Of a DNA stretch of 64,000 nucleotides, positions 3,690 to 64,000 are shown in pieces (the first letter of the stretch is position 1; every line of letters begins with the position of its first letter). The notes under the pieces are model-generated. The model was not told the DNA's origin. It ran no database searches and saw only the letters and a list, made by a program, of their open reading frames with translations. Location of the stretch: NCBI GenBank assembly GCA_963669175.1, contig OY769902.1:1743515-1807514 (forward strand), given 5' to 3'. The DNA is from a bacterium. Its GTDB lineage: Bacteria; Electryoneota; Electryoneia; Electryoneales; Electryoneaceae. The translations under genes and the position numbers were made by a program.

Positions 3690-4385
3690 TCAATCGGTCT
3701 GTTGGTATTGAATGATCAACGTCTTACGTTGCCCATTCTCGTCCTGAAGTTCGATTTCAATGTAGTCCGTCGAACCCTCATCGTTTACCTCGGGCACGGA
3801 GCCCTGATCGGCGCCTCCGGTTTCCATGTTGCCGTCCGGATCGACGGTTCCCATGAAACCAGGTCCGATTTCCGACTCCTGACCTGTCTGAATATTCAGC
3901 AGGCTTACGAGACCTTCCAGGGTGATCTGGAGAGTGGTGCCATCCGGTTCAACGATGACCCAGAACTGGGTGCCTTTGACCGACGCGACTGCGGTCGGGG
4001 TAGCCACTTCCATGGCGCCCTTCTGCTGGGCCACGTTTGCAAACAACTCACCCACTTCCATGTTGACACGTTTCGAAAGCGAATAGTCATCGTTACGTGT
4101 CGCAGTTACTGTAATTTCAGTATTGGGTCGAATTTTTATCTGGGTTTTGTCATCAGTAAATACCATGGATACGAAGCCGTCCGCACCGGTCCGCACCATG
4201 TGACCGTCGTCAAGGACTTCGCCGAAATTCAGCTTGGTCCAACCCTGACCACGGTTTACTTCAGTTTTGCCTTGAACGACGGTAACTACTGCAATCGCCT
4301 TGGCGCCATCCGCCATCGCACATACCGCAAGCAGGAATACCAGCAGAATGGCGAACGCTGCGGTTCCGAATCTATGCGTTCTCAT
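3690..4385 (-). CDS. FecR-domain protein, periplasmic (signal peptide, no anti-sigma N-domain)
   Basis: 231 aa. N-terminal signal peptide (AAFAILLVFLLAVCAMA). Beta-rich FecR-like core with GTQFWV motif. RBS AGGAGAAAG upstream of the ATG. The antisense ORF 3702..4472 is R/C/H-rich and implausible. Confidence 0.5.
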   Translation of the reverse strand: MRTHRFGTAAFAILLVFLLAVCAMADGAKAIAVVTVVQGKTEVNRGQGWTKLNFGEVLDDGHMVRTGADGFVSMVFTDDKTQIKIRPNTEITVTATRNDDYSLSKRVNMEVGELFANVAQQKGAMEVATPTAVASVKGTQFWVIVEPDGTTLQITLEGLVSLLNIQTGQESEIGPGFMGTVDPDGNMETGGADQGSVPEVNDEGSTDYIEIELQDENGQRKTLIIQYQQTD

Positions 4386-5771: not shown

Positions 5772-6908
5772 TCAATTTTTTCTACGACCTGATCCTTTCT
5801 TTTTAACTCTATTTAAAAACTCTGATATGCCATGATCTTGATAATATTTCCATGCTTTTCGATATCCTTTGCCATAAGCCGGATCATCATTTTCTTCAAG
5901 CTGATCCAAATGATAGTCTGCGAGTTTACTGTGAATGGATTCCAGCATAATTCGCATGGCTACATTTGCCGAGCCTTCCCGCCAGTCGGCATGGCCGCCG
6001 TCCGCATCATTCTCGTGTTGCCAGACATGAAAAAGCTCATGTGCGGCAACACCGGATAACATATCACGCGGGAGACCATAAAGAAAATAGATTGTTGTAT
6101 CTTCACGAATAACTCTTCCATTCATTGTCTCCGAGTGAACCGAGTGCAGCCCATTGGCATCACCTTCGCCGCCATGCAATTCATGTAATTGATTTTTATC
6201 AACAAGGACGATGCTGATGTCATCCAGGCTGGTGTTGAATCGGATACCGTTGGCTTCCAGCACCGCAGCGGCTTCACGGACAATCTGAGCAGCCTTCCCG
6301 GCGTCGGTGACTTCCGTTTCACGGCAGACTTCACACTGAATACGTCCATCCGCCAATTTCCAGGCGTGTCCCGGCAGAGCAAAACGTCCGCAAGAATCAC
6401 ATAATTCAACCTGGTCCTTATACTCGGCGCTGATCGTGGTTCCCCACCAGTCCGTTACATAGGGACCGAGAATAGGCTGGCCGGTGATAGCGCAAATCGG
6501 GGCAAGGTTCTCTACATAACACGATTCATGATACACCTTGCCATCAATGGTGAAGTATTTGTCCGATACAGGTGCGCCACACCATTCACAACGCGGCGAG
6601 AACTCATGGTGATAACAATCGGGGTGATAAAATTTGCCCTTGTGTTCGATATAGCTGCCATCGATACGAAACCCGCAGGCGGCGCATTTGAAGCATTCCG
6701 GATGAAAGTATTTGCCATTGGCTTCGATGTACTGGCTGGTGATTACTTTACCGCATCCGGCACAGCGTACCCTCTGTGCCAGGGCATGGGTCGGTAATAC
6801 AATCAAGCCAACTGCAGCCGGTGTCACCACACGAACAAATCGCCTGCGATCCCACTTTTCGGCATCGGCTCGACATGTTCTCTCTGTGCTGTTCTTTTTG
6901 CAAGCCAT
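5772..6908 (-). CDS. LIM-type double zinc-finger protein fused to an HExxH zinc metallopeptidase (DA1-like architecture), Tat-like signal
   Basis: N-terminus has an RRRF twin-arginine-like motif followed by a hydrophobic stretch and ALA-Q. Then C-x2-C-x16-H-x2-C-x2-C-x2-C-x19-C-x2-H, which fits the LIM consensus, followed by a second C-x2-C-x16-H-x2-C unit and CDSC...CEVC. C-terminal region carries HELFH (HExxH). Confidence 0.6.
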   Translation of the reverse strand: MACKKNSTERTCRADAEKWDRRRFVRVVTPAAVGLIVLPTHALAQRVRCAGCGKVITSQYIEANGKYFHPECFKCAACGFRIDGSYIEHKGKFYHPDCYHHEFSPRCEWCGAPVSDKYFTIDGKVYHESCYVENLAPICAITGQPILGPYVTDWWGTTISAEYKDQVELCDSCGRFALPGHAWKLADGRIQCEVCRETEVTDAGKAAQIVREAAAVLEANGIRFNTSLDDISIVLVDKNQLHELHGGEGDANGLHSVHSETMNGRVIREDTTIYFLYGLPRDMLSGVAAHELFHVWQHENDADGGHADWREGSANVAMRIMLESIHSKLADYHLDQLEENDDPAYGKGYRKAWKYYQDHGISEFLNRVKKKGSGRRKN

Positions 6909-7019: not shown

Positions 7020-7634
7020 AGCAATCAGCCTGCTTCAGCAGGCTCTTTTTAGCACCCGGCTGAAGCCCTGTCTCTTGCTCACATCTTCGTGTTTCTGCCA
7101 CCCCAGAGGGGGTGGTATATTTTAGTGTAGGGTTGACGCTGTCTGTTTAGCGTCTACCCTACGAAAAAGATCAAACCTTATCTCAACCCTGGAAGGGTTG
7201 CATAACGTATAATTTACACCCAATTGGTTTGTATAGAATATAAAATGCGTTATTTCCTGTATTTATTGAACGTACTAATATGAATCGCGTATTATGCAAC
7301 CCTTCCAGGGTTGATTATTCGTTAGAATACCTGACATAGTGTACAGGCCAAACAGACGGCCTGTACACTATGCTAAAATAGGGAATCCCGCCGGGATTCT
7401 AAAAATGCTATGTCCACAACTCTTTTACTGATACAGCTTTCAGAAGATGTGAGTAAGAGACAGGGCTTTAGCCGGGTGGATTAGTGTAACTAAATAAAAG
7501 AGCGCGCTTTAGCGTGCTTGCTTGAACAACAGATTGCTGTTTTGGAAAGCACCCTGAAGGGCGCTCGATATAGTTGTTATCTTTGTCCCCCGGCTAAAGC
7601 CGGGGGCTAAGGGGAGCAGGCTAAAGCCTGCTAA
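7020..7634. mobile_element. composite MITE-like element (repeat family A, long copy) with nested inverted repeats
   Basis: Termini agcctgcttcagcaggct-ctttttag-cacccggctgaagcc (left) and cccccggctaaagccggggg-ctaagggg-agcaggctaaagcctgct (right) are inverted relative to each other. The same termini bound the 210-bp copy at 40126..40336. An internal segment at 7497..7585 matches the reverse complement of 40195..40275. Further nested IR pairs at 7050-7095/7425-7475 and 7190-7215/7285-7310. Confidence 0.5.
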
Positions 7635-7855
7635 TACTAATGGATAGAACCCCCTTGAGGCGAATACTTATGGATAGAATTCCCTTGAGATAGTAAACGG
7701 AAAGAAGCGCTTTTCAGAAACTGTGATAGAAGACAGATGTTTCGGCGAGAATAACTTTCGCTAATCTGAAGCCGCAAGAACTTCCGAGAATACCATACGT
7801 GGAACATATCCATTGTGACACGGTACAAGTTTCAGGACGAAAACAGGCTGGATTC

Positions 7856-14245: not shown

Positions 14246-14480
14246 GTACATTGTATGGTTGAAAGCAAAGAGATGGAAAAAGGGGACTGCCTCCTTTCCC
14301 TGGAGTAAAACTATCCCACTGTGAACATGGACCGGGAAAGGTGGCTGTACCCTTTTCCTTGCGAGCAGGCAAGTAGTCCATGGAAAAGGGTACAGTTTCC
14401 TTTTCTGCAAGTTCAGCGAGAGTGTTTTGTGCGAGCATGAAGAAAAGGATTCCGTCCCCTTTTCCTGACAGCATGTCTAT
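14246..14480. repeat. repeat family B, copy 1 (about 235-bp hairpin-rich element)
   Basis: Shares roughly 80-90% identity with 35414..35663 and 44698..44962. Built from four imperfect palindromic modules of GGAAAAGG...CCTTTTCC type. Short ORFs inside differ in length between copies. Confidence 0.6.
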
Positions 14481-16308: not shown

Positions 16309-16384
16309 TGAAACGATCCTACTAAATCGGTCTACGTTGGAAGCTTTACGTCGTCAGGTCACACGCATGAAAATCGTATGCGCA

Positions 16385-16564
16385 AGACCTGACGAAACTG
16401 GCGCTGCATTAGACCTGACGAATCTGGCGCTGCATTAGACCTGATGAAACTGGCGCTGAATTAGACCTGATGAAACTGGTGCTGCATTAGACCTGACGAA
16501 ACTGGCATGGAGTAGACCTGACGAAACTGGCGCTGCATTAGACCTGACGAAACTGGCATGGAGT
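16385..16564. repeat. tandem array, 7 copies of a 25/26-bp unit (agacctgacgaaactggcgctgcatt)
   Basis: Seven head-to-tail units with a few substitutions; two units end in ggcatggagt. No spacers, so not CRISPR. Lies between the BI-1 gene and a small OMP gene. Confidence 0.85.
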
Positions 16565-22527: not shown

Positions 22528-23664
22528 TCAAATAATTTTCGCCTGGCGCAGAATTTCCAGCCACATATCAACCCCATACTGGATCAACTCATCAGGGAAA
22601 TCGTAGGTTGGATGATGCAATGCCGGTTGATCTTTACCTGCTCCAAGCCCGAACAACGCACCCGGATAAGCGTGGGTGAAGTGTCCGAAATCTTCCGACC
22701 AGGGGAAGGGGACTGGCGGTTCGATTACATCCAGGTCGAGTGATCTTGCGGCATTTTTAACAAGCGAAGCTGCATGGATATCATTGAATGTCTCTGGAAA
22801 CTCCTCAGTCCAATTTATTTCAACCTCAAGCTCATGCATGTGTGCAATGGAATGAGCCAGTCTTTCCGCATGTTTTCCCGTTTTTGCCAGGACATTGCCA
22901 TCATGTGCACGAAGGGTGGCCATGACTTGCGCCTTGCCCGGTGAGGTTCCAAACGCTATTTCACCAAGCTTGGCGTAAATGACTGTTACTTTTACCGCCT
23001 CATGCAGGGCAACAGTGGTTTGAGGAAGCGCGCTGAGGCCATGAATCAATTCAGCAACCGCCAACGCCGGGCTTTTTCCCTGTTCCGGTTGTGCGGCATG
23101 AGACGTGGCGCCTGTCAGGTCGATAATCACCCCCTTGGACGCGCAGGCGAAGGTGCCGTCCCGGACGATGACTGATCCCTTTTCAAAACCGGGAAGGTTA
23201 TGCAGGGCGAAGACCATATCCGGAGTGAATTGGGCGAATACAGGATCAGCGAGCACCTGTGCCGCGCCCTGTCCGTTTTCCTCGGCCGGTTGGAACAGGA
23301 GGATGACTTTGCCATGTTTGACCGGGTTGTTCTTCAGGTGTTCAGCAATACCGGCGAGGATGGCCATGTGACCATCATGCCCGCATTTATGCGCAACGCC
23401 CTCGGTTATGGATGTATAGTCGAGGTCAGGCGTGTCCTGTATCGGAAGCGCATCAAGATCTGAACGAATCAGGATTTCCTGTCCTTCCTGACCGCTGTCG
23501 TATACAGCCGCGATACCATGCCCGCCAAGATGGTTGACGATGGTTGTACATCCTGTACCTTTCAGGTATTCAGAAATCGTTGCAGCGGTTTTTTCTTCCT
23601 GTCCGGACAATTCTGCAATCCGGTGCAGGGTGTGACGAAGTTGGATCAGCCTGCTACACATCAT
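22528..23664 (-). CDS. M20-family amidohydrolase (N-acyl-amino-acid amidohydrolase/hippuricase-like)
   Basis: Metal-binding HKCGHDGH motif and length typical of M20D enzymes. Confidence 0.7.
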   Translation of the reverse strand: MMCSRLIQLRHTLHRIAELSGQEEKTAATISEYLKGTGCTTIVNHLGGHGIAAVYDSGQEGQEILIRSDLDALPIQDTPDLDYTSITEGVAHKCGHDGHMAILAGIAEHLKNNPVKHGKVILLFQPAEENGQGAAQVLADPVFAQFTPDMVFALHNLPGFEKGSVIVRDGTFACASKGVIIDLTGATSHAAQPEQGKSPALAVAELIHGLSALPQTTVALHEAVKVTVIYAKLGEIAFGTSPGKAQVMATLRAHDGNVLAKTGKHAERLAHSIAHMHELEVEINWTEEFPETFNDIHAASLVKNAARSLDLDVIEPPVPFPWSEDFGHFTHAYPGALFGLGAGKDQPALHHPTYDFPDELIQYGVDMWLEILRQAKII

Positions 23665-24145
23665 CTATCCCTGGTCTGTGTTTTTGAAATCCGCCATCTT
23701 GCCGATGAGTACTGGTTTAGCGCATTTTTTCAATAATTGCAAAACATCAAGATTTTGTTATAAAATAATAAATAGGCGGCAGGAAATAAACTGACAGAAA
23801 CTGAATATATAATCAAAAAAATACAAAAATTACTGAAACATTTTCAGGAGATTATAAAATAAAAAAAATCACTTGCGAAATGTAATCAGGTTCTCTATTT
23901 TTATATGTCGAACGGGGAGCGGGTCCAGCGGAGACTGGAGTCCGACTCTTACCAGTCAGGCGCTGAGTTTCCATTGTTTTCACTCCATGTCTGTGCTGGA
24001 TGTTCGACGGGAACACCAAACACCACGCTTATTTTGGTCCCCATTCCTGTTGTGCATTTCTCCTCTCCGGATCGGATTCGCTCGTTACTCCTTTGAAAAG
24101 CCATGCAAAAGCATAGGCGCATCATTCATTAACAAGGATTTTCAC

Positions 24146-24607
24146 ATGTCAACACCAGACAATGGTCTTGAGTTTACAACGGTAGAGCATCGTGAACAGT
24201 TACCGGAATGGGCAAGCTGGAACAAGATGGTCATGTACTTTCATGAAACCATGAAACCCTACGAAGATCCGCCTGATCAGGTGGAAGCAGCGTTACACTA
24301 TGCCTTTACCCCCGGTGAGGGACAGGGCGGTTTTCTGGAACTGGTGCGTCTTGATGGCGAACTGGTCGGCGCCTGCCTGATGCTGCGCACCGGCATGAAA
24401 GGCTATATCCCGGAATGGATTCTGCTGATGGTCACAGTTGATCCGAGCACACGTGGCAAAGGGATCGGCGGTAAGCTCATTCGTAAATGCCTTGACCAGG
24501 CGGACGGTAATGTCAAACTGCATGTGGAATACGACAATCCGGCCAAGAGGTTGTATGAACGCATCGGCTTCACATCCAAGTATGCTGATATGAGGTATAC
24601 CAAATGA
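24146..24607 (+). CDS. GNAT-family N-acetyltransferase
   Basis: Acetyl-CoA-binding motif region (TRGKGIGGKLI). About 150 aa from ATG 24146. Stop overlaps the next gene's start (ATGA at 24604-24607). Confidence 0.65.
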   Translation: MSTPDNGLEFTTVEHREQLPEWASWNKMVMYFHETMKPYEDPPDQVEAALHYAFTPGEGQGGFLELVRLDGELVGACLMLRTGMKGYIPEWILLMVTVDPSTRGKGIGGKLIRKCLDQADGNVKLHVEYDNPAKRLYERIGFTSKYADMRYTK

Positions 24608-25785
24608 ACCGGGTCACCATAAACCTGGAAGCATTACAGCATAATTTCAAGATCATCGACGGTTGGATGAAGAAGCACGGGTCTACCTGGACCCTGGTGA
24701 CCAAGGTTCTGTGTGGTCATCAAGATACGATCAAGGGGTTGGAAATGCTGGGTGTGCGTTCCATGGCGGACTCGCGCCTGGCAAACCTGGAAACCATCAA
24801 GAAAACAGTACCGGATGTGGAAACCTGGTATCTTCGCATCCCTCATATGCCGGCGATTCCGGATATCGTACGCTTGGCGGATGTGTCCCTGGCTACGGAA
24901 GAAGAGACCATCTATGCCATGAACGAGGAGGCGAAGAAGCAGGATAAGATGCACAAAGTGATCGTCATGATTGAACTCGGCGATCTGCGTGAAGGTATCC
25001 TGCCCGGTAAGCTGGTTGAGTTCTACCAGAACATTTTTGAATTGTCCAATATCGAAGTGTGGGGAATTGGTGCGAACATAGGTTGCCTGTCCGGTACCGT
25101 ACCCAATGTGGATCAGCTCACCCAGCTTATGCTCTACCGTGAACTGTTGGAATTGAAATTCCAACGCAAGCTTCCCATGATTTCTGCTGGAGCAAGTGTG
25201 GTGATGCCACTATTGCTGGATGGGAAAGTGCCCAGAGAGATCAACAATTTCAGGATTGGAGAAGCGTTGTACCTGGGCACTGACCTGATCAATGGCGGGG
25301 CGCTTCCGGGATTGCGTGATGATGCAGTCACGGTTGAAGCGGACATCGCCGAGATAAAGGAAAAGAGCCTGGTACCGTTGGGTGAAACGACTTCTCTGGC
25401 TCCGTTTGAGACATTCAAGCAGGAAGACACTCATCCCGGTGAACGTGGAGTTCGTGCCGTGATCACCATGGGCCAACTGGACACCGAGATAGCAGGCCTT
25501 ATGCCTATTCACCCGGATCACCAGGTGGTGGGAGCGTCCAGCGATCTGGCGGTTGTTTCAGTCAAGGAGCGGGAAGGGCTCAAGGTTGGCGATACCATAC
25601 GCTTCCGTCCGACCTACGGCGCATTGGTGCGCTTGATGATCGGAAAATATGTCGCTAAACAGGTGATTCCTTCACTGGATAAATACCAGGCTATTCTGGA
25701 CAAAGGATACGACCTGGAATTACCCCCTGTTATGGAACAGGTTGATGAAATCGAGGAGGAGGACACGGCATCCGGGACAGACTGA
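24604..25785 (+). CDS. alanine-racemase-domain (fold-type III PLP, YhfX-like) protein
   Basis: N-terminal TIM-barrel pattern with candidate PLP lysine in LVTKVLCG. Exact enzyme class not assignable. Confidence 0.5.
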   Translation: MNRVTINLEALQHNFKIIDGWMKKHGSTWTLVTKVLCGHQDTIKGLEMLGVRSMADSRLANLETIKKTVPDVETWYLRIPHMPAIPDIVRLADVSLATEEETIYAMNEEAKKQDKMHKVIVMIELGDLREGILPGKLVEFYQNIFELSNIEVWGIGANIGCLSGTVPNVDQLTQLMLYRELLELKFQRKLPMISAGASVVMPLLLDGKVPREINNFRIGEALYLGTDLINGGALPGLRDDAVTVEADIAEIKEKSLVPLGETTSLAPFETFKQEDTHPGERGVRAVITMGQLDTEIAGLMPIHPDHQVVGASSDLAVVSVKEREGLKVGDTIRFRPTYGALVRLMIGKYVAKQVIPSLDKYQAILDKGYDLELPPVMEQVDEIEEEDTASGTD

Positions 25786-25826
25786 TCGAATGGATCCTCA
25801 TCGGCGGGTATATCACTTTCATCATT

Positions 25827-27194
25827 GTGAAAGGGATGTTGAAGGCCCGCAAGATTCATGTCGCTGATGATTTTCTTGTTGCCGGCCGTTCGATAACCTG
25901 GCCACTTCTTTTTGCCACCATGGGGGCTACTGTCATTGGCGGCGGTTACTCCATCGGTGCCGTTGGTAAGTCCTATGAATGGGGTCTGCTCATGGTACTG
26001 ATCTCCATGGGCGGCTACATTCATTTTATTTTTTCCGGGCTTGTGGTGGCCCCGAAATTCCGTGAAGCCAAACTGTATACAGTTGCCGGTTATTTCGGCC
26101 ACCGGTATGGTGAGGGGCCACGTCTTGCCGCAATGGTTCTGTCCCTGCTGTTCTCCGTCTTTATCGTTGCAGCGCAAATGGCGGCAATCGGTTCCGTGCT
26201 GTCTACCCTGATGCCGGCAACTATTGATGCGCAAAACACCATTCGAACAGGCATCCTTGTCGGTGGTATCCTCGTGGTTCTCTACAGTACCGCCGGTGGA
26301 TTGCTGGCGGTGATCTATACGGATGTCTACCAGTTTGTCGTGTTGTTGCTTGGTTTCCTGATCACACTTGCCTTTATCATGCCGGACATGATCGCCACCT
26401 GGCCCACTGTCACCAATACCCTGCCGGACCGCTTTTTCACTATCACCGGGGATAAAGGATGGGCGTTCATGCTCACGACATTCCTGGCTTTTCTTGTGGG
26501 GGAGACCTTCGCACCGGGATATGCCACACGTTACTGTATCGGCAAGGATGTCCGTCACACAAAGATCGGTATCGCCGGAGTTGGCGCTTTTCTGACCCTG
26601 ATTTTTCCCGTGATCATCTTTTTCATCGCTCTGTATGCCCGGATGAAATTTCCGGATATTGATCCCCAGCAGGCCTTGCCGCAAGTAATCCGTTACCTGC
26701 ACAATCCATTCATATCCGGGATCATTATTGCCGCGTTGCTGAGTGCGGTGATGTCATCGGCCGATTCGGCGCTGAATTCATCAACCGCCATTTTCGTGAA
26801 GGATCTGTTCGAGGAAACCTTTCACTGGACCGGGAAAGACCAGGCGCAGATGCTGAGAATCGCTCGTATCTGCACAGCAGTTCTTGGGGTTGTTGCCATG
26901 CTGATTGCCATCCTCTGGTCTGATATTATCGAACTGTTGCTGTTCACCTACCAAGTCTGGGCGCCGGCCATTATTCTGCCGGTGGTCATCGGCGCCACAA
27001 CCAGCTTCCGCAGCAAAGCCCTGAACCGTGCGATCCTGTGGACCATGATTTTGTCTACGGTGATCACCTTCGGCTATCGCTATACGGAGTATGCTGCGAC
27101 CTTCGATCCAGCGGTGTTCGGGGTGTTCCTGAGTGTGGGAGTGTATGCGGTTATCAGGAGTGGGGAGAAACTTATAAAACGAATTAGTAATTAG
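25827..27194 (+). CDS. sodium:solute symporter (SSS) family transporter
   Basis: 12-13 hydrophobic helices with SSS-type motifs (GGLLAVIYTDVYQ). The in-frame upstream stretch LIEWILIGGYITFII looks like part of helix 1 but has no canonical start, so the true start is uncertain. Confidence 0.7.
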   Translation: MKGMLKARKIHVADDFLVAGRSITWPLLFATMGATVIGGGYSIGAVGKSYEWGLLMVLISMGGYIHFIFSGLVVAPKFREAKLYTVAGYFGHRYGEGPRLAAMVLSLLFSVFIVAAQMAAIGSVLSTLMPATIDAQNTIRTGILVGGILVVLYSTAGGLLAVIYTDVYQFVVLLLGFLITLAFIMPDMIATWPTVTNTLPDRFFTITGDKGWAFMLTTFLAFLVGETFAPGYATRYCIGKDVRHTKIGIAGVGAFLTLIFPVIIFFIALYARMKFPDIDPQQALPQVIRYLHNPFISGIIIAALLSAVMSSADSALNSSTAIFVKDLFEETFHWTGKDQAQMLRIARICTAVLGVVAMLIAILWSDIIELLLFTYQVWAPAIILPVVIGATTSFRSKALNRAILWTMILSTVITFGYRYTEYAATFDPAVFGVFLSVGVYAVIRSGEKLIKRISN

Positions 27195-27995: not shown

Positions 27996-28030
27996 CTCGC
28001 TCTCCCTTTTTAGATCCACTCACAGGCTTA

Positions 28031-28065
28031 ACAGGATAATAGGATGAAAGGATTTCAAGGATGAT
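28031..28065. promoter_or_regulatory. (AGGAT)n direct-repeat module upstream of dapB
   Basis: acaggataataggatgaaaggatttcaaggat. The same module occurs upstream of dapA (29714..29746) and glnA (31408..31447). Confidence 0.35.
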
Positions 28066-29682: not shown

Positions 29683-29713
29683 GCTTCCACTCCCAATATC
29701 TTACCGCAGGACT

Positions 29714-29890
29714 CACAGGATAATAGGATGAAAGGATGCCAAGGATAACTGCACAAATATACTTAAAAGATAAAGAAAAGCAATGATACGATTAGAATAA
29801 TAAATGCTATTAATCAATAATATAATTTGTCACCCATAAAATGTGTTTTTATCCTTGAAATCCTTCTATCCTATCATCCTGTTAAGCCTG
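29714..29890. promoter_or_regulatory. dapA upstream module: (AGGAT)n array, AT-rich spacer, inverted (ATCCT)n array
   Basis: cacaggataataggatgaaaggatgccaaggat (29714..29746), about 100 bp of AT-rich DNA, then atccttgaaatccttctatcctatcatcctgt (29851..29882). Same architecture as the glnA upstream module. Confidence 0.4.
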
Positions 29891-31361: not shown

Positions 31362-31407
31362 CTGTCTTCTCCTTCTATGTTCGCTTTTTCTTTTCCGACC
31401 TTTGGGA

Positions 31408-31578
31408 CTCACAGGATATTAGGATGATAGGATGATAAGGATAAGGCGAAAAGTTCTATTGAAAAGAAAAGATTTTCATTTGATCTTTCAAAAGTAAATA
31501 ATAAATAATTGATTACAGGGTTCTTGCTAATATTTTGTATCCTTGATATCCTTCTATCCTATCATCCTGTGCGACATG
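31408..31578. promoter_or_regulatory. glnA upstream module: (AGGAT)n array, AT-rich spacer, inverted (ATCCT)n array
   Basis: cacaggatattaggatgataggatgataaggat (31408..31447), AT-rich spacer, then tatccttgatatccttctatcctatcatcctgt (31538..31572). Lies between glnB and glnA. Confidence 0.4.
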
Positions 31579-35413: not shown

Positions 35414-35663
35414 ATGGTTGGAATAAAGGATAAGGATATGGAAAAAGGGGACAGTTTCCTTTCCCTGGGGCAAAGCCTTCCCGCTGTGAGCATGGACCGG
35501 GAAAGGTGGCTGTACCCTTTTTCTTGAGAGCAGGCAGGACGTACACGGAAAAGGGTACAGTTTCCTTTTCCACAAGTTCGGCGAGAGTTTTTCATATGCG
35601 CGCGAGGAAAAGGATCCCGTCCCCTTTTCCCGGCAATCCTTATTATGTCGGAATAAAATCGAG
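35414..35663. repeat. repeat family B, copy 2
   Basis: Aligned with 14246..14480 and 44698..44962. Ends in ggaataaaatcgagaa as copy 3 does. Confidence 0.6.
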
Positions 35664-35772: not shown

Positions 35773-36045
35773 ATCCCCGGCTTCGACCGGGGATCTCGCG
35801 GGATATCGTGTAAAGCCCGTTTGGCACTACTTGTGCGTCGTGGTGTACGTCTAACAGTCGGGATACTGGTAGCGCAACCTCGAGATCCCCGTTCAAGCCG
35901 GGGATGACATGGGGATGGGGGATGGGGATGGGGGATGGGGATGACATGGGGATGGGGATGACATGGGGATGGGGTGGGGATGACATAGGGACTGGGGGAT
36001 GGGGATGACATGGGGATGGGGGATGGGGATGACATGGATATTGGG
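35773..36045. repeat. hairpin repeats (family C) plus G-rich heptamer tandem tract
   Basis: Hairpins atccccggcttcgaccggggat and gagatccccgttcaagccggggatgacat, followed by about 140 bp of GGGGATG/GGGGATGACAT units. The overlapping 173-aa minus-strand ORF is a low-complexity artefact. Confidence 0.7.
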
Positions 36046-36186
36046 AGGACGGATGGCCCGATGCACAGGTGACAATACTTCCATACCAAACGGAGCAGGC
36101 AAACTCTCACAAGAACAAGCCTTACCAGTTGTTCTTCGAGTGCGTCGGGATGAATGAAAAACAATACCTTATAACTTCAAATCAAA

Positions 36187-40125: not shown

Positions 40126-40336
40126 AGCAATCAGCCTGCTTCAGCAGGCTCTTCTTAGCACCCGGCTTCAGTCGGGGTGTTCATGGTGACAAAGAAATGA
40201 CGAGCGCCCTTCAGGGTGCTTTCCTGAATCAGGACTTGTACAAGGCAAGCACGCTAAAGCGCGCTCAGAATGATCTCCGCATCTTTACACCCCGGCTGAA
40301 GCCGGGTGCTAAAAAGAGCAGGCTAAAGCCTGCTAA
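40126..40336. mobile_element. MITE-like element (repeat family A, short copy) with terminal inverted repeats
   Basis: Left end agcctgcttcagcaggct-cttcttag-cacccggcttcagtcggggtg. Right end caccccggctgaagccgggtg-ctaaaaag-agcaggctaaagcctgct. Together these form a roughly 45-bp TIR around a 110-bp core. Termini match those of 7020..7634. Confidence 0.55.
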
Positions 40337-40342
40337 AATTGT

Positions 40343-40414
40343 CAGATAGCAGAATGAATTCAGATTGCAGAATGAATTCAGATTGCAGAATGAATTCAGA
40401 TAGCAGAATAAATA
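40343..40414. repeat. tandem array, 4 copies of an 18-bp unit (cagattgcagaatgaatt)
   Basis: Direct head-to-tail repeats immediately right of the MITE-like element. Confidence 0.8.
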
Positions 40415-43185: not shown

Positions 43186-44664
43186 TTGATATACTCGGTT
43201 TTGTTGAATTACTCAGGTCTTGCAAAAAGTAAAAGGCATGGTTCATTTTACAACCAAGAAGACGCCAAATCTCTTCAGTTGTAAAGGAGATAACCATGCC
43301 TGTCATAACATCGTCATTTTTTGAGTTACTTGCAAGTTTTCGTCCGGTGTTTCGGAAGCCTGTTTATGAGAATTTTGTACTGTTGGCTATCGGCGCTGTA
43401 TTGAATTTCGGTCGTCAGACAGTCTGTCAGTTATTACGTGTATTTCCCGGACCGGTAGCGAAGAGTTGGTCTTGTTATCACCATTTTCTTTCGTCTGCCA
43501 ACTGGTCCGCCCTGAAACTGGCAAAGATTCTCTGCTCTTTGATACTTGATCAGATTGCCGAACGTGATCCGATCCTTCTGATCGTGGATGATACCCTGAT
43601 CCGTCGTTGGGGAAAGCATGTTTACCAGATATCCGTTCACCGCGATCCCGTCCGTTCGGGCAAAGCAGGGACAAAAGTCGTTTATGCTCGCGGTCTTCAA
43701 TGGATGGTGATTTCGATTGGTTTGCGCACCCGTTATCGTTCGCAGATCTGGGCGCTTCCTGTATTCGTGTTTCCGGAGATCGCCAAAAAGCGTGTTCCGG
43801 AATCGAAGTACCGCAGTCCTGTACACCTGATCATTCTCGGGGCGCGTCTGCTGCTTCGATGGTTCCCGGACCGCCGTTTCCTTATCCTTGCCGACGGTAC
43901 GTTGAACTCCCACGAACTTCACCGTTTCGTGGCGAAAGAGAACCGTCTTGCTATCATCGGGCATTCGCGTATGGATACGGTGCTGCATGATCCGCCGCCT
44001 CCACCGAACGGGAAACGTGGACGTCCGCGCAAAGTCGGTGACCGTTTGCCCGCACCGGGACAAGAGGCGAAAAAGCCGGATGCTGCCTGGGAAAAAGCGT
44101 CTTGCCTCTGGTATGGGAACAAGACAAAAGACCTGTTGCTGCTTTCCGGTGTTGGCTGCTGGTACCGTTCCGGGGAAGATGTTGTCCTGATACGCTGGGT
44201 GGTGGCGCGTGATCCCGACGGCAAAAACAAGGACATTGTCTTATCTACATCCAAAACAGACTTAACCCCGGCCCAGGTTGTCAGCTCATATGTACGACGA
44301 TGGGCGTTGGAAACCACGTTTGAAGAGTCACGGAAACATCTGCGTATCGAAACGACAGAAAACTGGTCAAAAAAATCGATTCAAAGAACAGTGCCCCTGC
44401 TGTTTGGCTTGTTCAGTCTGATGGTTGTTTGGTATAGTCAGCAGCCAGAGCAGAAAGCTGTTGCGCAAACAGAGTGGTACACAAAACTGGAACCCAGTTT
44501 CTCAGACGTGCATCAGGCATTGCGTGCTGAATTGTGGATGCAGGCGATTTTTCCCGAATGCAAGCAGCCACGCGGATTCTTAAAAAAGAAAAGCAATATC
44601 CTTAAATTCCTTATTCACAAAGCCGCTTGATCCGCTAAAATGAGCAAAACCGAGTGATATAGTT
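43186..44664 (+). mobile_element. insertion sequence (IS4/IS701-superfamily), apparently intact
   Basis: Single transposase ORF flanked by imperfect terminal inverted repeats tgatatactcggttttg (43188..43204) and caaaaccgagtgatata (44646..44662), which share an 11-bp perfect core. Confidence 0.6.
43296..44630 (+). CDS. DDE transposase (IS4/IS701 superfamily)
   Basis: Candidate catalytic residues in LIVDDT and ILADG, and the Y-x2-R-x3-E-x6-K signature in YVRRWALETTFEESRKHL. 444 aa. Confidence 0.75.
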   Translation: MPVITSSFFELLASFRPVFRKPVYENFVLLAIGAVLNFGRQTVCQLLRVFPGPVAKSWSCYHHFLSSANWSALKLAKILCSLILDQIAERDPILLIVDDTLIRRWGKHVYQISVHRDPVRSGKAGTKVVYARGLQWMVISIGLRTRYRSQIWALPVFVFPEIAKKRVPESKYRSPVHLIILGARLLLRWFPDRRFLILADGTLNSHELHRFVAKENRLAIIGHSRMDTVLHDPPPPPNGKRGRPRKVGDRLPAPGQEAKKPDAAWEKASCLWYGNKTKDLLLLSGVGCWYRSGEDVVLIRWVVARDPDGKNKDIVLSTSKTDLTPAQVVSSYVRRWALETTFEESRKHLRIETTENWSKKSIQRTVPLLFGLFSLMVVWYSQQPEQKAVAQTEWYTKLEPSFSDVHQALRAELWMQAIFPECKQPRGFLKKKSNILKFLIHKAA

Positions 44665-44697: not shown

Positions 44698-44962
44698 GAG
44701 ATCCACTGTATGGTTAATGGTTAGAGGAAAGGAAATGGAAAAAGGGGACTGCCTCCTTTCCCCGGGGTAAAGCCTTCCCGCTGTGAAAATGGACCGGGAA
44801 AGGTGGCTGTACCTTTTTTCTTGAGAACAGGCTGGAATTATACGGAAAAGGGGATAGCTTCCTTTCCCACGAGTTCAGCTAGCGTTTTTTGTGTGAGTGC
44901 GAGGAAAAGGATTCCGTCTCCTTTTCCCGACAATCTCATCACAACGGAATAAAATCGAGAAT
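44698..44962. repeat. repeat family B, copy 3
   Basis: Directly right of the IS. Aligned with copies at 14246 and 35414. Confidence 0.6.
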
Positions 44963-59207: not shown

Positions 59208-61733
59208 GTGTTTCTAAGTAATCTTCGTTTGCCGGTAAAGATTGCGGGATTAAGCCTGGGAATACTTGTCATTGTTGCGGTAATTCTTGGTGTTGTAGCA
59301 ACAATGGGTATTCGTAATCTTGGCAATCAGGTTCAGTCTGATTTGAAGCAGAACACTGAAGACGAGCTGGTGTCGACTCGAGAAACACTGGAAAATGCGC
59401 ATCAAAGCCGTCTACGTGATTTGGTGAATACGGCAGCCAGTCATTTCGAGGAATTGAATCAGGCTGTATTGGAAGGAAGGATGAGCCTGCAGCGTGCGCA
59501 GCGTGAGGCGATGGAGCGGGTTCGCGTAATGCGTTACGATGAAGGGAAGGGCTATTTCTGGATTAATTCGGCTGATCCGATTCAGACTACGATGATCATG
59601 CATCCGACGGTTCCTTCTCTGGAGGGCACCGACGTATCTCAGTATACGAAGAATGGTCGCGTGGTCATGGCAGATGGAACAAATACGCCGATGTTTGTTG
59701 AAATGGCTCGCGTAACCTTGAACAGTCCGACAGATGACGGTTTTGTCGGCTATCCCTGGCCAAATCCTCTCAACATGTCCGAGTGGCTTCCCAAGTTATC
59801 TTATGTGTACAATTTCAAACCCTGGGGCTGGGTGATCGGCTCAGGCGTTTATGTGGATGACATTGACAAGGCCATGGTGTTGAAGCAGGCGCAAATGGAA
59901 GAGATGCAGGAGCGTTTCATTTCTGAAGCGTCCAAACAGACCACTTCAGCAATAACACGTATTCTTATAGTCACCCTCATTCTTGCTGTCATCGGAGTAT
60001 TCCTGACCATGTTGGTAGTCCGGGATATCAATGTGCCGTTGAAGAGAATTCAGGATGCTGCGGATGCCATTGCCATGGGTGATGTCCAGCAGGATGTCGA
60101 GATGCGCAGAAAGGATGAGATCGGCCAACTTGCCGTTGTCTTCGGCAATATGATTGAAGGCCTGAAGGATAAGGCGCGAATTGCCGAGGAAATCGCAGCG
60201 GGCAATCTTCAGGTTGATATCAAAGCCCTGTCGGACCGGGATGCAGTTGGCAAAGCCATGCAATCCATGAAGGACAGTCTCCTTGCCATGCAGAAGAACC
60301 TGGGCGAGACCATAGAGGCGCAGAAAGCCGGCGACCTGGATATGCGGTGCAATCCCGAGCGTTTCAAGGGCGCGTATGCAGAACTGCTGCAGGGCATGAA
60401 TGATGCGCTTGAAGCTGTGATCAAGCCATTAATTGAAGCTAGTGACATTCTTCAGGTTTATGCTGACGGCGATCTTACCCGTCAGATACGTGATCTGCCC
60501 GGCAAGCAGGTTGTGTTGACAAACGGCATGAATCAGATTCGAGCCAACCTGAACTCGCTGATTCAGGCCGGTGTTGAACTGGCAGATGCAGCTCGTGAAG
60601 GACGTCTGCATGAACGCGGGGACGCTGGTCGGTTCTCCGGCGGCTATCGCAAGATCATTGAAGGAATGAATGATATCATCGACAACCTGCTCAAACCGGT
60701 TGAGGAGGTTGTCAAGGCGCTGGAGAAGATGGCGGACGGCGATCTGAACCTGTCTGTAAGCGCGGATTACAAGGGCGATCATGCCAAGATGATGAACGCC
60801 ATGAACAACACCCTGGATGCGCTGAATGAACTGTTGATCGAAGTTCAGGAAGCAATTGACCAGGTGGATTCCGGTTCAACCCAGGTTTCCGATGCTGCGC
60901 AGTCGCTGTCTCAGGGATCGACCGAGCAGGCAAGTTCCATGGAAGAAGTGACATCCGCGACTACAGAAGTCGGTGGTATGATCAAGCAGAATGCCGAGTC
61001 GGCAGTTCAGGCGAACATGCTGGTTGCGGACTCACGCAAGGCGGCTGATCAGGGCAATGCCCAGATGCAGGATATGCTTGGCGCCATGCAGGATATCAAC
61101 TCATCCTCCGATGAGATCAACCGCATTATCAAGGTGATCGATGAAATCGCCTTCCAGACCAACCTGCTGGCGCTGAATGCTGCGGTTGAGGCCGCTCGTG
61201 CCGGTGTACACGGGAAAGGGTTTGCCGTCGTTGCCGATGAAGTCCGAAACCTTGCCCAGCGAAGCGCGCAGGCAGCGAAAGAAACAACCGAATTGATCGA
61301 AGGCACCCGGCAACGTGTTGATAAGGGCGCCAAGATCGCGGATGAGACAGCAGAAGCGTTGGTGAAAATTGTCGATGGCGTTACGAAAGTAACGGACCTG
61401 GTAAGTGAGATTGCATCGGCCTCCAAGGAGCAGTCCCTTGGAATCGAGCAGATCACGGATGCGCTGGGGCAGATTGATCAGGTTACCCAGGCGAATACGA
61501 CCAATGCGGAAGAGAGCGCTGCGGCGGCAGAGGAGCTGTCAAGCCAGGCAACGAATCTGCGGGCCATGGTGGCAAGGTTCTCCCTGAGAAGCTCCAAGTC
61601 GAGAAGAAAACACAACACGTATGCTGAAATAGCGGCTGCTCCGAGAAAGAAAGCCCTGCCAGGGTACGAAGGCATAGAAACCAAACCTGAAGATGTAATC
61701 GCCCTGGATGATGAGGACTTTGAAGACTTCTAG
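59208..61733 (+). CDS. methyl-accepting chemotaxis protein with Cache-like periplasmic sensor and multiple HAMP repeats
   Basis: N-terminal TM, periplasmic sensor region ([18 protein letters not shown]), second TM, several HAMP-like repeats, and the highly conserved MCP signalling hairpin ([39 protein letters not shown]). GTG start with GAGGAGG RBS. Confidence 0.9.
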
Positions 61734-61755
61734 AGAGATGGCTTCTGTAAAGCAA

Positions 61756-61800
61756 TCCACTAGTGGATCATAGCAGGTGCAATGATCCACTAAATCGATA
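61756..61800. promoter_or_regulatory. conserved bipartite palindromic motif (copy 1)
   Basis: aatCCACTAGTGGATCA-n15-TCCACTAA. Contains the perfect palindrome CCACTAGTGG. A near-identical motif lies at 62993..63040. Confidence 0.4.
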
Positions 61801-61822
61801 GTCCAGGTACAAGAATAGTAAT

Positions 61823-61858
61823 ACCCATCGAGTCGAATTACTCGATGGGTATTTTTTC
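61823..61858 (+). terminator. intrinsic terminator
   Basis: Perfect 11-bp stem acccatcgagt / actcgatgggt, 6-nt loop, followed by ATTTTTTC. Confidence 0.7.
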
Positions 61859-61936
61859 TAAGAATTGTATAAGAATCATACTTATCCTGTTCACTGACAG
61901 TTGGGAAAGACTCGCCCGGAAGAAAAGGAATTGCTG

Positions 61937-62830
61937 ATGAAAGTGGCGTTAAGCGCAGTCCAGCCTGGAATGGTATTGGCTGAAGATATTCGTATTGATA
62001 GGCGTGTTTACTATCATCGAGGGGAGCGTATATCAAAATCTGACTTGAAGGTACTGAAATCGCTTCGTGTTAAGAGTCTTCACATCGATGAGAACGCCGA
62101 TAAGCCGGAAAGCCGTGAGGGGTTTCTCTCGGATAAGCTGCGTGAAGAAGCTGTTGCTGAAGTGCGCCGTACCTACCTGGATTTTCACCTGATTACCCCG
62201 CGCAGGTTTGATGCCATACGCACTGTGGGCGAGAAAATCGTCGATGAAATTCTCAGTCAGAATACCTTCAATTTTTCATCAATGGCGTTGCGTACTTACG
62301 ATGATTACACCTTCCATCATTCAGTAAATGTTACTTCGGTATCGGTAGCGCTCGGTTCGCAGATGGGGTTGCCCGAACGTGAGCTGAAAGGGCTGGCAGC
62401 AGGCGCTTTGATGCATGACATCGGGAAAATGCGGATACCGGAATTGATTCTGCAAAAGAATGGTCGGCTTGAACCGACAGAACGTGATTTTATCAACCGA
62501 CACCCGGAATGGGGCTTCGATATCCTGTCAGAACAGACCGCCAGCGACCCGGTAATCTGGGGGGTGGCACACCAGCATCATGAGGCAATGGATGGGTCCG
62601 GATATCCCAACGCGAAGACCGGACGCAATATTCATCCGTGGGCCAGGATTGTCATGGTGGCTGATATCTGGGATGCGTTGCGCAGTGACCGGCCTTATAA
62701 ACCTGCCTGGTCAGTTGGGGATACTTTCGGGTACATGAACAGTGCGGAAATGACAAAGAAACTGGACCCGGAAGCGCTCAACGCCATGAATCAAATGATC
62801 GCTGTTGAAGACACCTGCATGTCTGAATAG
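61937..62830 (+). CDS. HD-GYP domain protein (probable c-di-GMP phosphodiesterase)
   Basis: HD motif (ALMHDIGK) and HHEAMDGSGYP (HD-GYP signature). An N-terminal domain of about 110 aa precedes it. Confidence 0.8.
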   Translation: MKVALSAVQPGMVLAEDIRIDRRVYYHRGERISKSDLKVLKSLRVKSLHIDENADKPESREGFLSDKLREEAVAEVRRTYLDFHLITPRRFDAIRTVGEKIVDEILSQNTFNFSSMALRTYDDYTFHHSVNVTSVSVALGSQMGLPERELKGLAAGALMHDIGKMRIPELILQKNGRLEPTERDFINRHPEWGFDILSEQTASDPVIWGVAHQHHEAMDGSGYPNAKTGRNIHPWARIVMVADIWDALRSDRPYKPAWSVGDTFGYMNSAEMTKKLDPEALNAMNQMIAVEDTCMSE

Positions 62831-62992
62831 CGACAAGGTTATCCTGCAGACGATTCAGTTAATGTACTTTATCGAATTATTATTCCACAAAATTGCATGA
62901 TTATACTGTCCCCGTGCCCCAAAAGGGATTTGAAATCTCTTTGGAGTTCCGCTTGCCGTGTCCCTATCTTGCTATCTTAGCATTGCCATTCA

Positions 62993-63040
62993 TACACTAG
63001 TGGATCAATCAGATTGGGTAAAACGGTCCACTAAGCACTT
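62993..63040. promoter_or_regulatory. conserved bipartite palindromic motif (copy 2)
   Basis: ataCACTAGTGGATCA-n19-TCCACTAA, ending about 27 bp before the ATG of the second HD-GYP gene. Confidence 0.4.
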
Positions 63041-63066: not shown

Positions 63067-64000
63067 ATGCACCTCGTAAGTGTCAATAAGCTGAAACCAG
63101 GTGATGTTGTCGGGAAACCAGTTTTTACCAGCGCCAGCGACATGCTGCTGGCGGCGGGCCAGGAACTGAGTACGCCAATGATCCAAAACCTCGTACGAAG
63201 AGGTTTTACTTATATATATGTACAGGATGGTGTCGCTGACGATATCGCGCCTTCGCAAGTCGTATCGGATACGCTGCGCCGTATGGTCAGCACGGAAATC
63301 AGCCAGGCCTACCAGAAAGTCAAGAATACCCCGGTCTATACTGCGATTAAGACGGAAACAGTTCAGAAAAGGCTGGAGAACGACCCCAAGCTGAAAGACC
63401 TGTTTACGGTTGCAGCGTTTCGCAAGCAGGCTTTGCACCTGCTGAACAATGTAGTCGATAACAATATCAGGGTCTTTTCCGCGCTTCCGGTGCGTTCGGA
63501 TGATACAGAACAATTTCAACATGCTGTTGATACAGCGCTGTTGTGTATTCTTGTCGGTCGTGAGCTTCATCTTGGCTGGCAGGATTTGCAGGTACTGACG
63601 ACGGCGGCAATGCTGCATGACATTGGTAAAGTACTTCTGTTAGAGGCTCGTCCTTCACTTCGAGAGACGAAAGGTGAGCAACTTCAAAAGGCGTTGGAGT
63701 CACACCCGGAGTATGCTGCTTCTTTGCTGAAGCACAGCGACCCGGACAGCTCCAAAGAACAGATCATTGTGCAGCAACACCATGAAAGATTGAATGGATC
63801 AGGTTATCCCGCTCGTCTGCGTGGCAAAGATATCGCACCGTTACAGATCAGCCAGTATGATACGGGTACAATTTCTGGATTATCTATGGTCCTGGCTGTT
63901 GTAAACCACTATGATAATCTGTTATCAGGGAAAACCAATGGCACTCTTCATTCTCCCGAAGATGCGATTAAGCAGCTTGTTCTCGAAGCCGGTGAAAGCT
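63067..64000 (+). CDS. HD-GYP domain protein, paralog (partial; 3' end beyond window)
   Basis: Hand-translated from ATG 63067 to the window edge. MLHDIGK and HHERLNGSGYP motifs. N-terminal domain similar to that of 61937..62830. Absent from the ORF track because it has no stop in the window. Confidence 0.75.
   Translation, partial: MHLVSVNKLKPGDVVGKPVFTSASDMLLAAGQELSTPMIQNLVRRGFTYIYVQDGVADDIAPSQVVSDTLRRMVSTEISQAYQKVKNTPVYTAIKTETVQKRLENDPKLKDLFTVAAFRKQALHLLNNVVDNNIRVFSALPVRSDDTEQFQHAVDTALLCILVGRELHLGWQDLQVLTTAAMLHDIGKVLLLEARPSLRETKGEQLQKALESHPEYAASLLKHSDPDSSKEQIIVQQHHERLNGSGYPARLRGKDIAPLQISQYDTGTISGLSMVLAVVNHYDNLLSGKTNGTLHSPEDAIKQLVLEAGES

Follow-up and report, generated by a model that had tools for sequence, protein, structure and literature searches.

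The locus examined here raises the question of what a short bipartite sequence is doing twice, in closely similar form, beside two HD-GYP genes near the end of a 64-kb stretch of bacterial DNA (the window). The earlier note on this DNA had read it as a conserved palindromic site for a dimeric regulator, and had allowed for a role at the RNA level. A regulatory site, an RNA element, a recombination site, a remnant of gene duplication and a member of a family of extragenic repeats are weighed here on sequence conservation, folding, neighbouring genes and occurrence in other genomes.

The repeated motif and its gene setting

Two blocks make up the motif, ATMCACTAGTGGATCA of 16 nt and GRTCCACTAA of 10 nt, in a combination that occurs only twice in the 64-kb window, 1,237 bp apart (Table 1). 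The two bipartite copies about 1.2 kb apart that the earlier note had described were found in their places, as was the gap of 15–19 nt between the blocks: 15 nt separate CACTAGTGGATCA from TCCACTAA in copy 1, and 19 nt separate the two blocks in copy 2. Across the arms, 24 of 26 positions are identical between the copies, and the loops and flanks have no shared sequence.

The pattern TAGTGGA-N10-40-TCCACTA matched the window twice, versus 0.00 matches expected from 100 shuffles, none of which contained one. An exact 13-mer of the motif is confined to these two sites in the window, and a second chance occurrence of such a 13-mer, calculated from 4^-13, has an expectation of about 0.002 in 64 kb. 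When the two intergenic regions were aligned locally, the score was 32, compared with 18.7 ± 2.5 for shuffled sequences, and the alignment spanned the 44-nt module only. Chance similarity as the origin of the motif is effectively ruled out by the shuffles and the alignment score, and it is confirmed that the motif is non-random and that its sequence is kept at both sites. Taken alone, the 10-bp palindrome does not reach significance in the window (2 matches at ≤1 mismatch versus 1.4 expected), and it is the bipartite arrangement that distinguishes the two sites from shuffled sequence. The core had been described as a perfect 10-bp palindrome. This holds for copy 1, in which CCACTAGTGG even extends to a perfect palindrome of 14 bp (ATCCACTAGTGGAT), but not for copy 2, whose counterpart reads ACACTAGTGG and is palindromic at 13 of 14 positions.

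Table 1. Coordinates in the window of the motif copies, their stem-loops and the genes discussed in the text.
Feature	Position	Strand	Remarks
Copy 1, proximal block ATCCACTAGTGGATCA	61755-61770	+	Perfect 14-bp palindrome at 61755-61768; left stem arm at 61761-61770
Copy 1, distal block GATCCACTAA	61784-61793	+	Right stem arm plus A
Copy 1, stem-loop TAGTGGATCA / 12-nt loop region / TGATCCACTA	61761-61792	+	10-bp stem plus 2 inner pairs
Copy 2, proximal block ATACACTAGTGGATCA	62992-63007	+	15/16 identity to copy 1
Copy 2, distal block GGTCCACTAA	63025-63034	+	9/10 identity to copy 1
Copy 2, stem-loop TAGTGGATC / 18-nt loop / GGTCCACTA	62998-63033	+	9-bp stem with one U:G pair
MCP gene (Cache, HAMP, MCPsignal)	59208-61733	+	Pfam MCPsignal 2e-55, dCache_2, HAMP
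Intrinsic terminator of the MCP gene	61820-61858	+	14-bp perfect stem, 6-nt loop, T-run
HD-GYP gene 1 (HD-GYP1), 297 aa	61937-62830	+	Pfam HD_5 1e-30; HHEAMDGSGYP motif; identical to database protein P0001
HD-GYP gene 2 (HD-GYP2), cut by the window end	63067-64000	+	Pfam HD_5; HHERLNGSGYP motif
FecR-domain protein	3690-4385		Anti-sigma-type domain
DDE_5 insertion sequence	43193-44655		Ends ACTCGGTTTTG...

Both copies were shown to be intergenic, in transcribed DNA and on its coding strand, one in the 3' UTR of the MCP gene and the other in the spacer or 5' leader of HD-GYP2. The hairpin of copy 1 starts 27 nt past the MCP stop codon; the stem of the terminator begins 27 nt downstream of it and separates it from HD-GYP1, the motif ending 143 nt before the ATG, in good agreement with the earlier placement between MCP stop and terminator, some 150 bp before the gene. 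Copy 2 sits in the spacer of 236 nt that separates the two HD-GYP genes, and the distance from its end to the HD-GYP2 ATG was measured at 32 nt, correcting the figure of about 27 bp given before. No + strand terminator is predicted between 62831 and 63066, and a sigma-70 scan returned no + strand promoter.

The two HD-GYP proteins each have an HD_5 match and share the motif HHExxxGxGYP. With 27% identity over 147 aa they are, judging by their sequences, ancient paralogs, and divergence of this order argues that the motif is not a duplication remnant. Because the paralogs are so distant and their flanks unalignable, an origin of the motif as a residue of the duplication of these genes was rejected. 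The combined alternative of chance similarity or an ancient duplication residue, for which the unremarkable statistics of the isolated palindrome might speak, is in our judgement scarcely credible.

Among the window ORFs scanned, none encodes a DNA-binding transcription factor, the only regulator-related match being a FecR (anti-sigma-type) domain protein, and none encodes a Y1/RAYT transposase. The sole insertion sequence in the window is of the DDE_5 type; its ends are unrelated to the hairpins, and derivation of the motif from it as a MITE was rejected on that ground. Other dispersed repeats abound in the intergenic DNA of the window, as do short hairpins.

Stem-loop structure and arm conservation

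A property overlooked in the earlier note is the complementarity of the two blocks: read in reverse complement, the distal block repeats the proximal one, and each copy is thus an inverted repeat able to form a stem-loop. Folded as RNA, copy 1 reaches −18.8 kcal/mol (z = −5.0 versus shuffles) and copy 2 −11.2 kcal/mol (z = −2.1); the corresponding single-stranded DNA folds reach −10.5 and −4.6 kcal/mol. The U:G pair in the stem of copy 2 is present on the + strand alone, and the wider leader around this copy folds no better than shuffled sequences (z = +1.35). The loops are unrelated in sequence and in length (12 versus 18 nt). The module is asymmetric, with six conserved bases, AT(C/A)CAC, on the 5' side of the stem and a single one (A) on the 3' side.

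A covariance model (R1) was built from 11 hairpins and run without filters on the 64-kb window. It retrieved the two copies only, with E-values of about 1e-9, the next match having E = 0.6. Copy 1 scored 39.7 bits (E = 3e-9), and copy 2 scored 39.1 bits on the + strand versus 8.4 bits on the − strand. When the 11 hairpins were aligned, 90% of the cells paired and a double-sided change was seen in 0 of 12 pairs; covariation did not rise above shuffled controls, and compensatory changes were absent. Degenerate copies break pairing rather than compensate for it, an indication that sequence, and not structure, is conserved. There is no evidence in these 11 hairpins of RNA structure under selection.

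These results bear on the possibility that the stem-loop is a dedicated RNA element, which an RNA-binding protein would bind or an RNase would cut, so that chemoreceptor and HD-GYP mRNAs would be coupled in their stability or translation. Both copies do lie on the sense strand of transcribed intergenic RNA, pairing in copy 2 is kept through a U:G that only the + strand offers, and the fold is stable, that of copy 1 falling well below shuffled controls. Against such an element stand the lack of covariation and the unexceptional folding of the wider copy 2 leader, together with the Rfam searches: Rfam 15, applied to the whole window at gathering thresholds, gave no match for the motif, and nor did a search of the motif region at E ≤ 10, where the best score was that of Qrr (23.7 bits versus a gathering score of 50). 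One of the planctomycete elements described below yielded nothing usable in Rfam. The hairpins are, moreover, missing from a relative and lie elsewhere between convergent genes, where both strands have their 3' ends (see below). We consider a dedicated RNA element improbable. What stands of the RNA-level role suggested before is that the hairpins fit within transcribed intergenic RNA; covariation and Rfam gave it no backing.

Specific RNA functions were also considered. The hairpin of copy 1 and the terminator do not overlap, and an antiterminator was rejected for this reason. The hairpins do not have the form of intrinsic terminators, as they lack a T-run at the end of the stem, and a + strand scan of the region found the MCP terminator only. 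A CsrA site was dismissed by eye, GGA being located in the stem instead of the loop.

The motif in a relative and in a planctomycete

The nearest available relative, the MAG GCA_964648415.1, was used for comparison (BLASTP identities to the window organism of 84% for RF1, 64% for HD-GYP1 and 69% for HD-GYP2). It keeps the HD-GYP1–HD-GYP2 tandem, in a cluster of three HD-GYP genes. The hairpin is absent from this cluster, both in the 242 nt before gene 1 and in spacers 1-2 and 2-3, as well as from the region upstream of a third paralog (L024) and from another locus (L026). In total, 30.5 kb of this genome, including a further 17.8-kb contig, contained no hairpin when searched with filters off. 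The HD-GYP1/2 spacer cannot be aligned with that of the relative, and no clean indel is visible.

Since the tandem is conserved and the hairpin is absent, the gene arrangement appears to predate the split of the two lineages and the hairpins do not. This points to a probable lineage-specific gain of the hairpins, read from one relative at this distance and compatible also with turnover of sites. The earlier note had named lack of conservation at orthologous loci as evidence that would count against a regulatory site, and the motif is indeed missing from those of GCA_964648415.1.

The same comparison weighs against a reading in which the hairpins are single-strand recombination sites, either IS200/IS605-type ends or integron attC sites, that flank a mobile 1.2-kb HD-GYP1 unit. 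Two similar hairpins in the same orientation do bracket exactly one gene plus its upstream terminator, and the asymmetric, conserved 5' AT(C/A)CAC may resemble a guide or cleavage tag. However, the relative, which has no hairpins, carries HD-GYP1 in the same place beside the HD-GYP2 ortholog, so the gene is not newly inserted cargo, and no transposase or integrase gene lies nearby. The core consensus of integron attC sites is GTTRRRY. Inspection by eye showed that the hairpins lack this core and are much shorter than attC sites, and an integron attC was dropped. We regard the recombination-site reading as very improbable.

Genome and metagenome collections were scanned with CACTAGTGGATCA-N10-30-TCCACTA. 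Most matches were singletons with stems of only 7–8 bp, as chance predicts; three other independent matches from the genome collections were likewise singletons, with 7-bp stems, and viral contigs and plasmids gave chance singletons or nothing. The same arms, CACTAGTGGATCA(A)...(T)TGATCCACTAG, were found on four contigs of a Planctomycetota MAG, SMAG_U14257 (67–70% GC), which is matched by identical metagenome contigs, and metagenomes added a fifth, variant locus. At the four loci and the variant, all 12 bp of the stem are present (CTAGTGGATCAA / TTGATCCACTAG) and the loop measures 17–19 nt. This family was found using the window's own motif, and its match to that motif is partly by construction; by our own estimate, the chance that an unrelated hairpin family matches a string of 11–13 nt is very small.

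The hairpins of this MAG are paired inside composite repeats of ~135–165 nt. Two subtypes exist, with different spacers that are conserved within the subtype, and in one of them an additional 17-nt inverted repeat surrounds the composite. Where hairpins are paired, the second frequently has a degenerate arm. The genes on both sides could be identified at two loci, and in each case they are convergent: genes for an AAA ATPase and an M42 aminopeptidase at one, for a TIR-domain protein and a HEAT/GATase1-like protein at the other. A further element directly adjoins a large HEAT/PD40 gene at its 3' end, and its other neighbour has no Pfam match. The neighbours identified include no gene of c-di-GMP signalling or chemotaxis. 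Approximately 60 kb of flanking sequence in this MAG contained no further copies, leaving at least five loci in all, which suggests that the family is low-copy there too.

The window organism, whose GC content is 51%, is not a planctomycete; its RF1 is most similar to proteins of Calditrichota, KSB1, Zixibacteria and Gemmatimonadota (~60–65% identity). The hairpin stems have 40–45% GC, even in the 68%-GC MAG, and it is mildly notable that identical arms, AT-rich for their host, occur in two phyla of such different base composition. The sharing of these arms argues for sequence-specific recognition by a protein that would be common to both lineages or transferred between them.

The distance between arms, measured from centre to centre, is 22 bp in copy 1, 26 bp in copy 2 and ~30 bp in the MAG. 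Conservation of sequence alone, AT-rich arms in a 68%-GC genome and a variable arm distance together argue that the arm sequence may be recognised by a protein. They argue likewise for recognition that would be of the folded form or of a single site, and not by an inflexible dimer that bridges the two arms in duplex DNA.

This brings us back to the regulatory site originally proposed, in which a transcription factor would bind the palindrome ATCCACTAGTGGAT, make auxiliary contact with the third half-site and co-regulate HD-GYP1 and HD-GYP2. The CTAG-centred palindrome of 14 bp, perfect in copy 1 and one position short of it in copy 2, resembles the operator of a dimeric repressor, as does the location of copy 2, close enough before a start codon to suit a repressor site. 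Within 64 kb the motif is found at two places only, both next to genes of one family, and it is sequence and not pairing that is conserved. In contrast to such an operator, a third half-site at variable distance turns the whole site into a hairpin: the proximal palindrome does not vary in spacing, but the distal arm shifts between the copies, and further still in the MAG, so that the sites would be out of helical phase.

Other observations also oppose an operator. Copy 1 precedes a strong terminator and is remote from the HD-GYP1 ATG; the motif is missing from the orthologous intergenic regions of the relative and from a third paralog locus there; the same sequence elsewhere belongs to 3' intergenic repeats, between convergent genes at two loci and with no identified neighbour from c-di-GMP signalling or chemotaxis. 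A search of the window allowing up to 3 mismatches revealed no further sites above chance. The regulator gene that the earlier note had proposed to look for was not found among the window ORFs scanned, where the FecR-domain protein remains the sole regulator-related match. We regard an operator as unlikely, and a dedicated HD-GYP control site is not favoured by the evidence. The earlier proposal of a dimeric-regulator site is upheld in that the motif is non-random and kept at both sites; the relative, the dispersed repeats of the MAG, the spacing and the terminator between copy 1 and HD-GYP1 speak against it.

Known sites were compared by eye. A sigma-54 promoter near either gene was rejected, the spacing being off by one or GG missing, and the NrdR box, the TrpR operator, the DasR dre site and the DnaA box (7/9 match) were set aside for a misfit of half-site or spacing.

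A possible affinity with extragenic palindromic repeats

REP, BIME and REPIN sequences are repetitive extragenic palindromes mobilised by RAYT Y1 transposases (PMC3479197, PMC3116915, PMC2817692). REPs occur in 3' UTRs, in operon spacers and in Planctomycetes, and when present in mRNA they are generic stability or processing elements; the foot of the REP hairpin bears a conserved unpaired GTAG (or CGTC) tetranucleotide (PMC3479197, PMC3733652). Their copy number is high and dispersed over the genome, often exceeding 100 (PMC2817692). GTAG- or CGTC-tagged palindromic repeats, which are small stem-loops, extend across phyla, including Planctomycetes and other deep-branching groups (PMC3733652). 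Bacterial MITEs include Correia, ERIC and RUP (reviewed in PMC10969869).

The element described here shares several features with REPs and BIMEs. It is an imperfect palindrome of ~35–45 nt found only in extragenic transcribed DNA (3' UTR and spacer), and with stems of 9–10 bp, loops of 12–18 nt and intergenic positions for both copies it falls within the description of a REP as an imperfect extragenic palindrome of 20–40 nt. Its arms are conserved in sequence and its loop or spacer is variable; one lineage has it, and the orthologous sites of a relative do not. The pairing of hairpins into mosaic composite elements in the MAG recalls BIMEs.

Unlike REPs, however, it has no unpaired GTAG tag. 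The foot of the hairpin reads (A/C)CAC followed by TAG, with CCAC or ACAC on the 5' side and A on the 3' side (GATT or TGCT on the opposite strand), and neither GTAG nor CGTC is found there. Copy number also seems low, with two copies in 64 kb of the window and about one composite per 13 kb of the selected MAG loci, none being found in the flanks. The scanned ORFs of the window include no RAYT gene, and the stems are richer in AT than the typically GC-rich stems of REPs. To judge from the missing GTAG/CGTC tag and the seemingly low copy number, the element is not a classical REP. With the GTAG- and CGTC-tagged repeats it has in common a stem-loop with a conserved unpaired tag at one end, but its tag fits neither group.

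Its likeness to MITEs lies in terminal inverted repeats around a short non-coding core that is intergenic, co-transcribed and able to form an RNA hairpin, and the MAG subtype with the 17-nt inverted repeat resembles a larger MITE. The window copies, at ~40 nt, are nonetheless shorter than typical MITEs. No convincing or consistent target-site duplication was found (AATC on both sides of copy 1, CATA/AGCA at copy 2), and the ends of the resident DDE_5 element are unrelated. Neither Rfam 15 nor a limited literature search turned up the hairpin family, and the motif strings appeared in the literature in cloning primers only.

The best-supported reading, to which we give about even credence, is that the motif is a REP/MITE-like palindromic element specific to this lineage, transcribed as part of the MCP 3' UTR and of the sequence preceding HD-GYP2. 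The abundance of other dispersed intergenic repeats in the window raises the prior for such a reading. One point against it is that the window holds only two copies, within 1.3 kb of each other and beside one gene family, a pattern that a local regulatory site would give equally well.

If the palindromic-repeat reading is correct, the two copies would be members of a small, sequence-conserved family of extragenic palindromes of the REP, BIME or MITE kind. The module, of ~40 nt, would begin with an unpaired 5' (A/C)CAC, after which the conserved arm TAGTGGATCA and its complement TGATCCACTA enclose a loop of free sequence. The hairpins were presumably gained in the intergenic DNA of the HD-GYP cluster after the split from the nearest sequenced relative. 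Their arms may stay constant because a protein reads their sequence, either as a folded single strand or as a duplex; by analogy with the REP/RAYT pair and with IS200/IS605 ends, a hairpin-specific transposase or nuclease would be the likeliest recogniser. As stable stem-loops in mRNA, they could affect their neighbours in a generic way, as a barrier to 3'-5' decay or as a processing point, by analogy with REPs in transcripts. Such an effect would not be dedicated c-di-GMP regulation.

So understood, the finding would be an ordinary one, adding one more small family of palindromic repeats, and it carries the caution that a perfect palindrome beside signalling genes need not be an operator. It could also give a handle on REP-like systems that have no classical GTAG tag. 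A bolder version, which we think quite unlikely, is that the hairpins belong to an undescribed, horizontally spreading, hairpin-specific system, REP-like but with a CAC/CTAG foot in place of GTAG and a transposase or binding protein of its own. This system would be common to a deep-branching FCB-group bacterium (51% GC) and to a Planctomycetota bacterium (68% GC), and would have been recruited here to shape the expression of the MCP and HD-GYP genes.

Dispersed and palindromic repeats of the window

The window contains several repeat families (see the table). The 207-nt repeat carries long internal inverted repeats (AAAGGTGGCTGTACCCTTTTCC / GGAAAAGGGTACAG), and one of its copies lies directly 3' of the DDE_5 insertion sequence, an element that is bounded by imperfect terminal inverted repeats of 18 bp (ACTCGGTTTTGTTGAATT / AAATGAGCAAAACCGAGT). 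A search of Rfam at the gathering score returned no match for the 207-nt repeat; possible identities are a MITE and an ncRNA family not yet classified. Some copies of the 38-nt module are found within this repeat, the rest being free-standing.

The blocks common to the two similar intergenic regions consist of short GC-rich hairpins in series (CAGCCTGCTTCAGCAGGCTC, CCCCGGCTAAAGCCGGGGG, AGCAGGCTAAAGCCTGCT and GCGCGCTTTAGCGTGC) with GCTNAAGC-type loops, and represent a further palindromic repeat family of the source genome. The copies of the ~40-nt repeat are spaced ~1.69 kb apart, in both orientations, around the dapB, dapA and glutamine synthetase genes.

Coordinates of the repeats, elements and gene described in this part
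Feature	Position	Remarks
207-nt dispersed intergenic repeat, 3 copies	window 14267-14473, 35432-35638, 44729-44935	82-86% identical
38-nt module AAAAGGGGACTG..CCTTTCCC, 6 occurrences	window 14278, 35443, 44740, 44846, 54671, 54731	
Intergenic region pair with common blocks	window 7020-7647 and 40126-40349	80-98% identical
~40-nt repeat GGACTCACAGGATAATAGGATGAAAGGAT	window 28025-28064, 29709-29748, 31405-31444	inverse copies 29846-29882, 31534-31570
Insertion sequence, DDE_5 transposase	window 43193-44655	transposase 43296-44630
Tandem array, first	window 16369-16557	26-nt period, GACCTGACGAAACTGGCGCTGCATTA
Tandem array, second	window 35900-36055	rich in GGGGATG
Tandem array, third	window 40342-40413	18-nt period, TCAGATTGCAGAATGAAT
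Bacterial protein, LIM and DA1-like peptidase domains	window 5772-6908 (-)	LIM 7e-13; DA1-like 1e-12
Type-B composite element (two hairpins and spacer)	L006 5790-6040; L021 400-680	Planctomycetota MAG / metagenome
GTGTCATT(CC) in three direct repeats, plus hairpin ATTCCTGCgaaaGCAGGAAT	L001 40-125	5' of the HD-GYP1 ortholog in the relative

A nested element in the Planctomycetota MAG

At L006 and L021, two loci of the Planctomycetota MAG or metagenome, the type-B composite element is additionally enclosed by a 17-nt inverted repeat (AGGGCGTGTTGCCCGAAT / ATTCGGGCAACACGCCCT). Because the flanks of the enclosed element differ between both loci, the whole constitutes a nested, MITE-like element of ~250 nt.

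HD-GYP loci of the relative

The direct repeats and hairpin at L001, the HD-GYP tandem locus of the relative (GCA_964648415.1), are unlike the hairpin motif of the window and could be a regulatory or repeat element of the relative's own. Synteny was also detected between window positions 22528-27194 and L024, a locus of the relative with a third HD-GYP paralog, comprising an M20 peptidase, a GNAT protein, an Ala_racemase_N protein and an SSF transporter. This block is followed by a 297-aa HD-GYP paralog (P0003) in the relative, whereas dapB occupies this place in the window, a gene-order difference indicating relocation or loss of HD-GYP paralogs between these genomes.

Tandem arrays and a LIM-domain gene

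The tandem array of 26-nt period is located upstream of an outer-membrane beta-barrel gene. The LIM plus DA1-like peptidase architecture, encoded here by a bacterial gene, is better known from plants.
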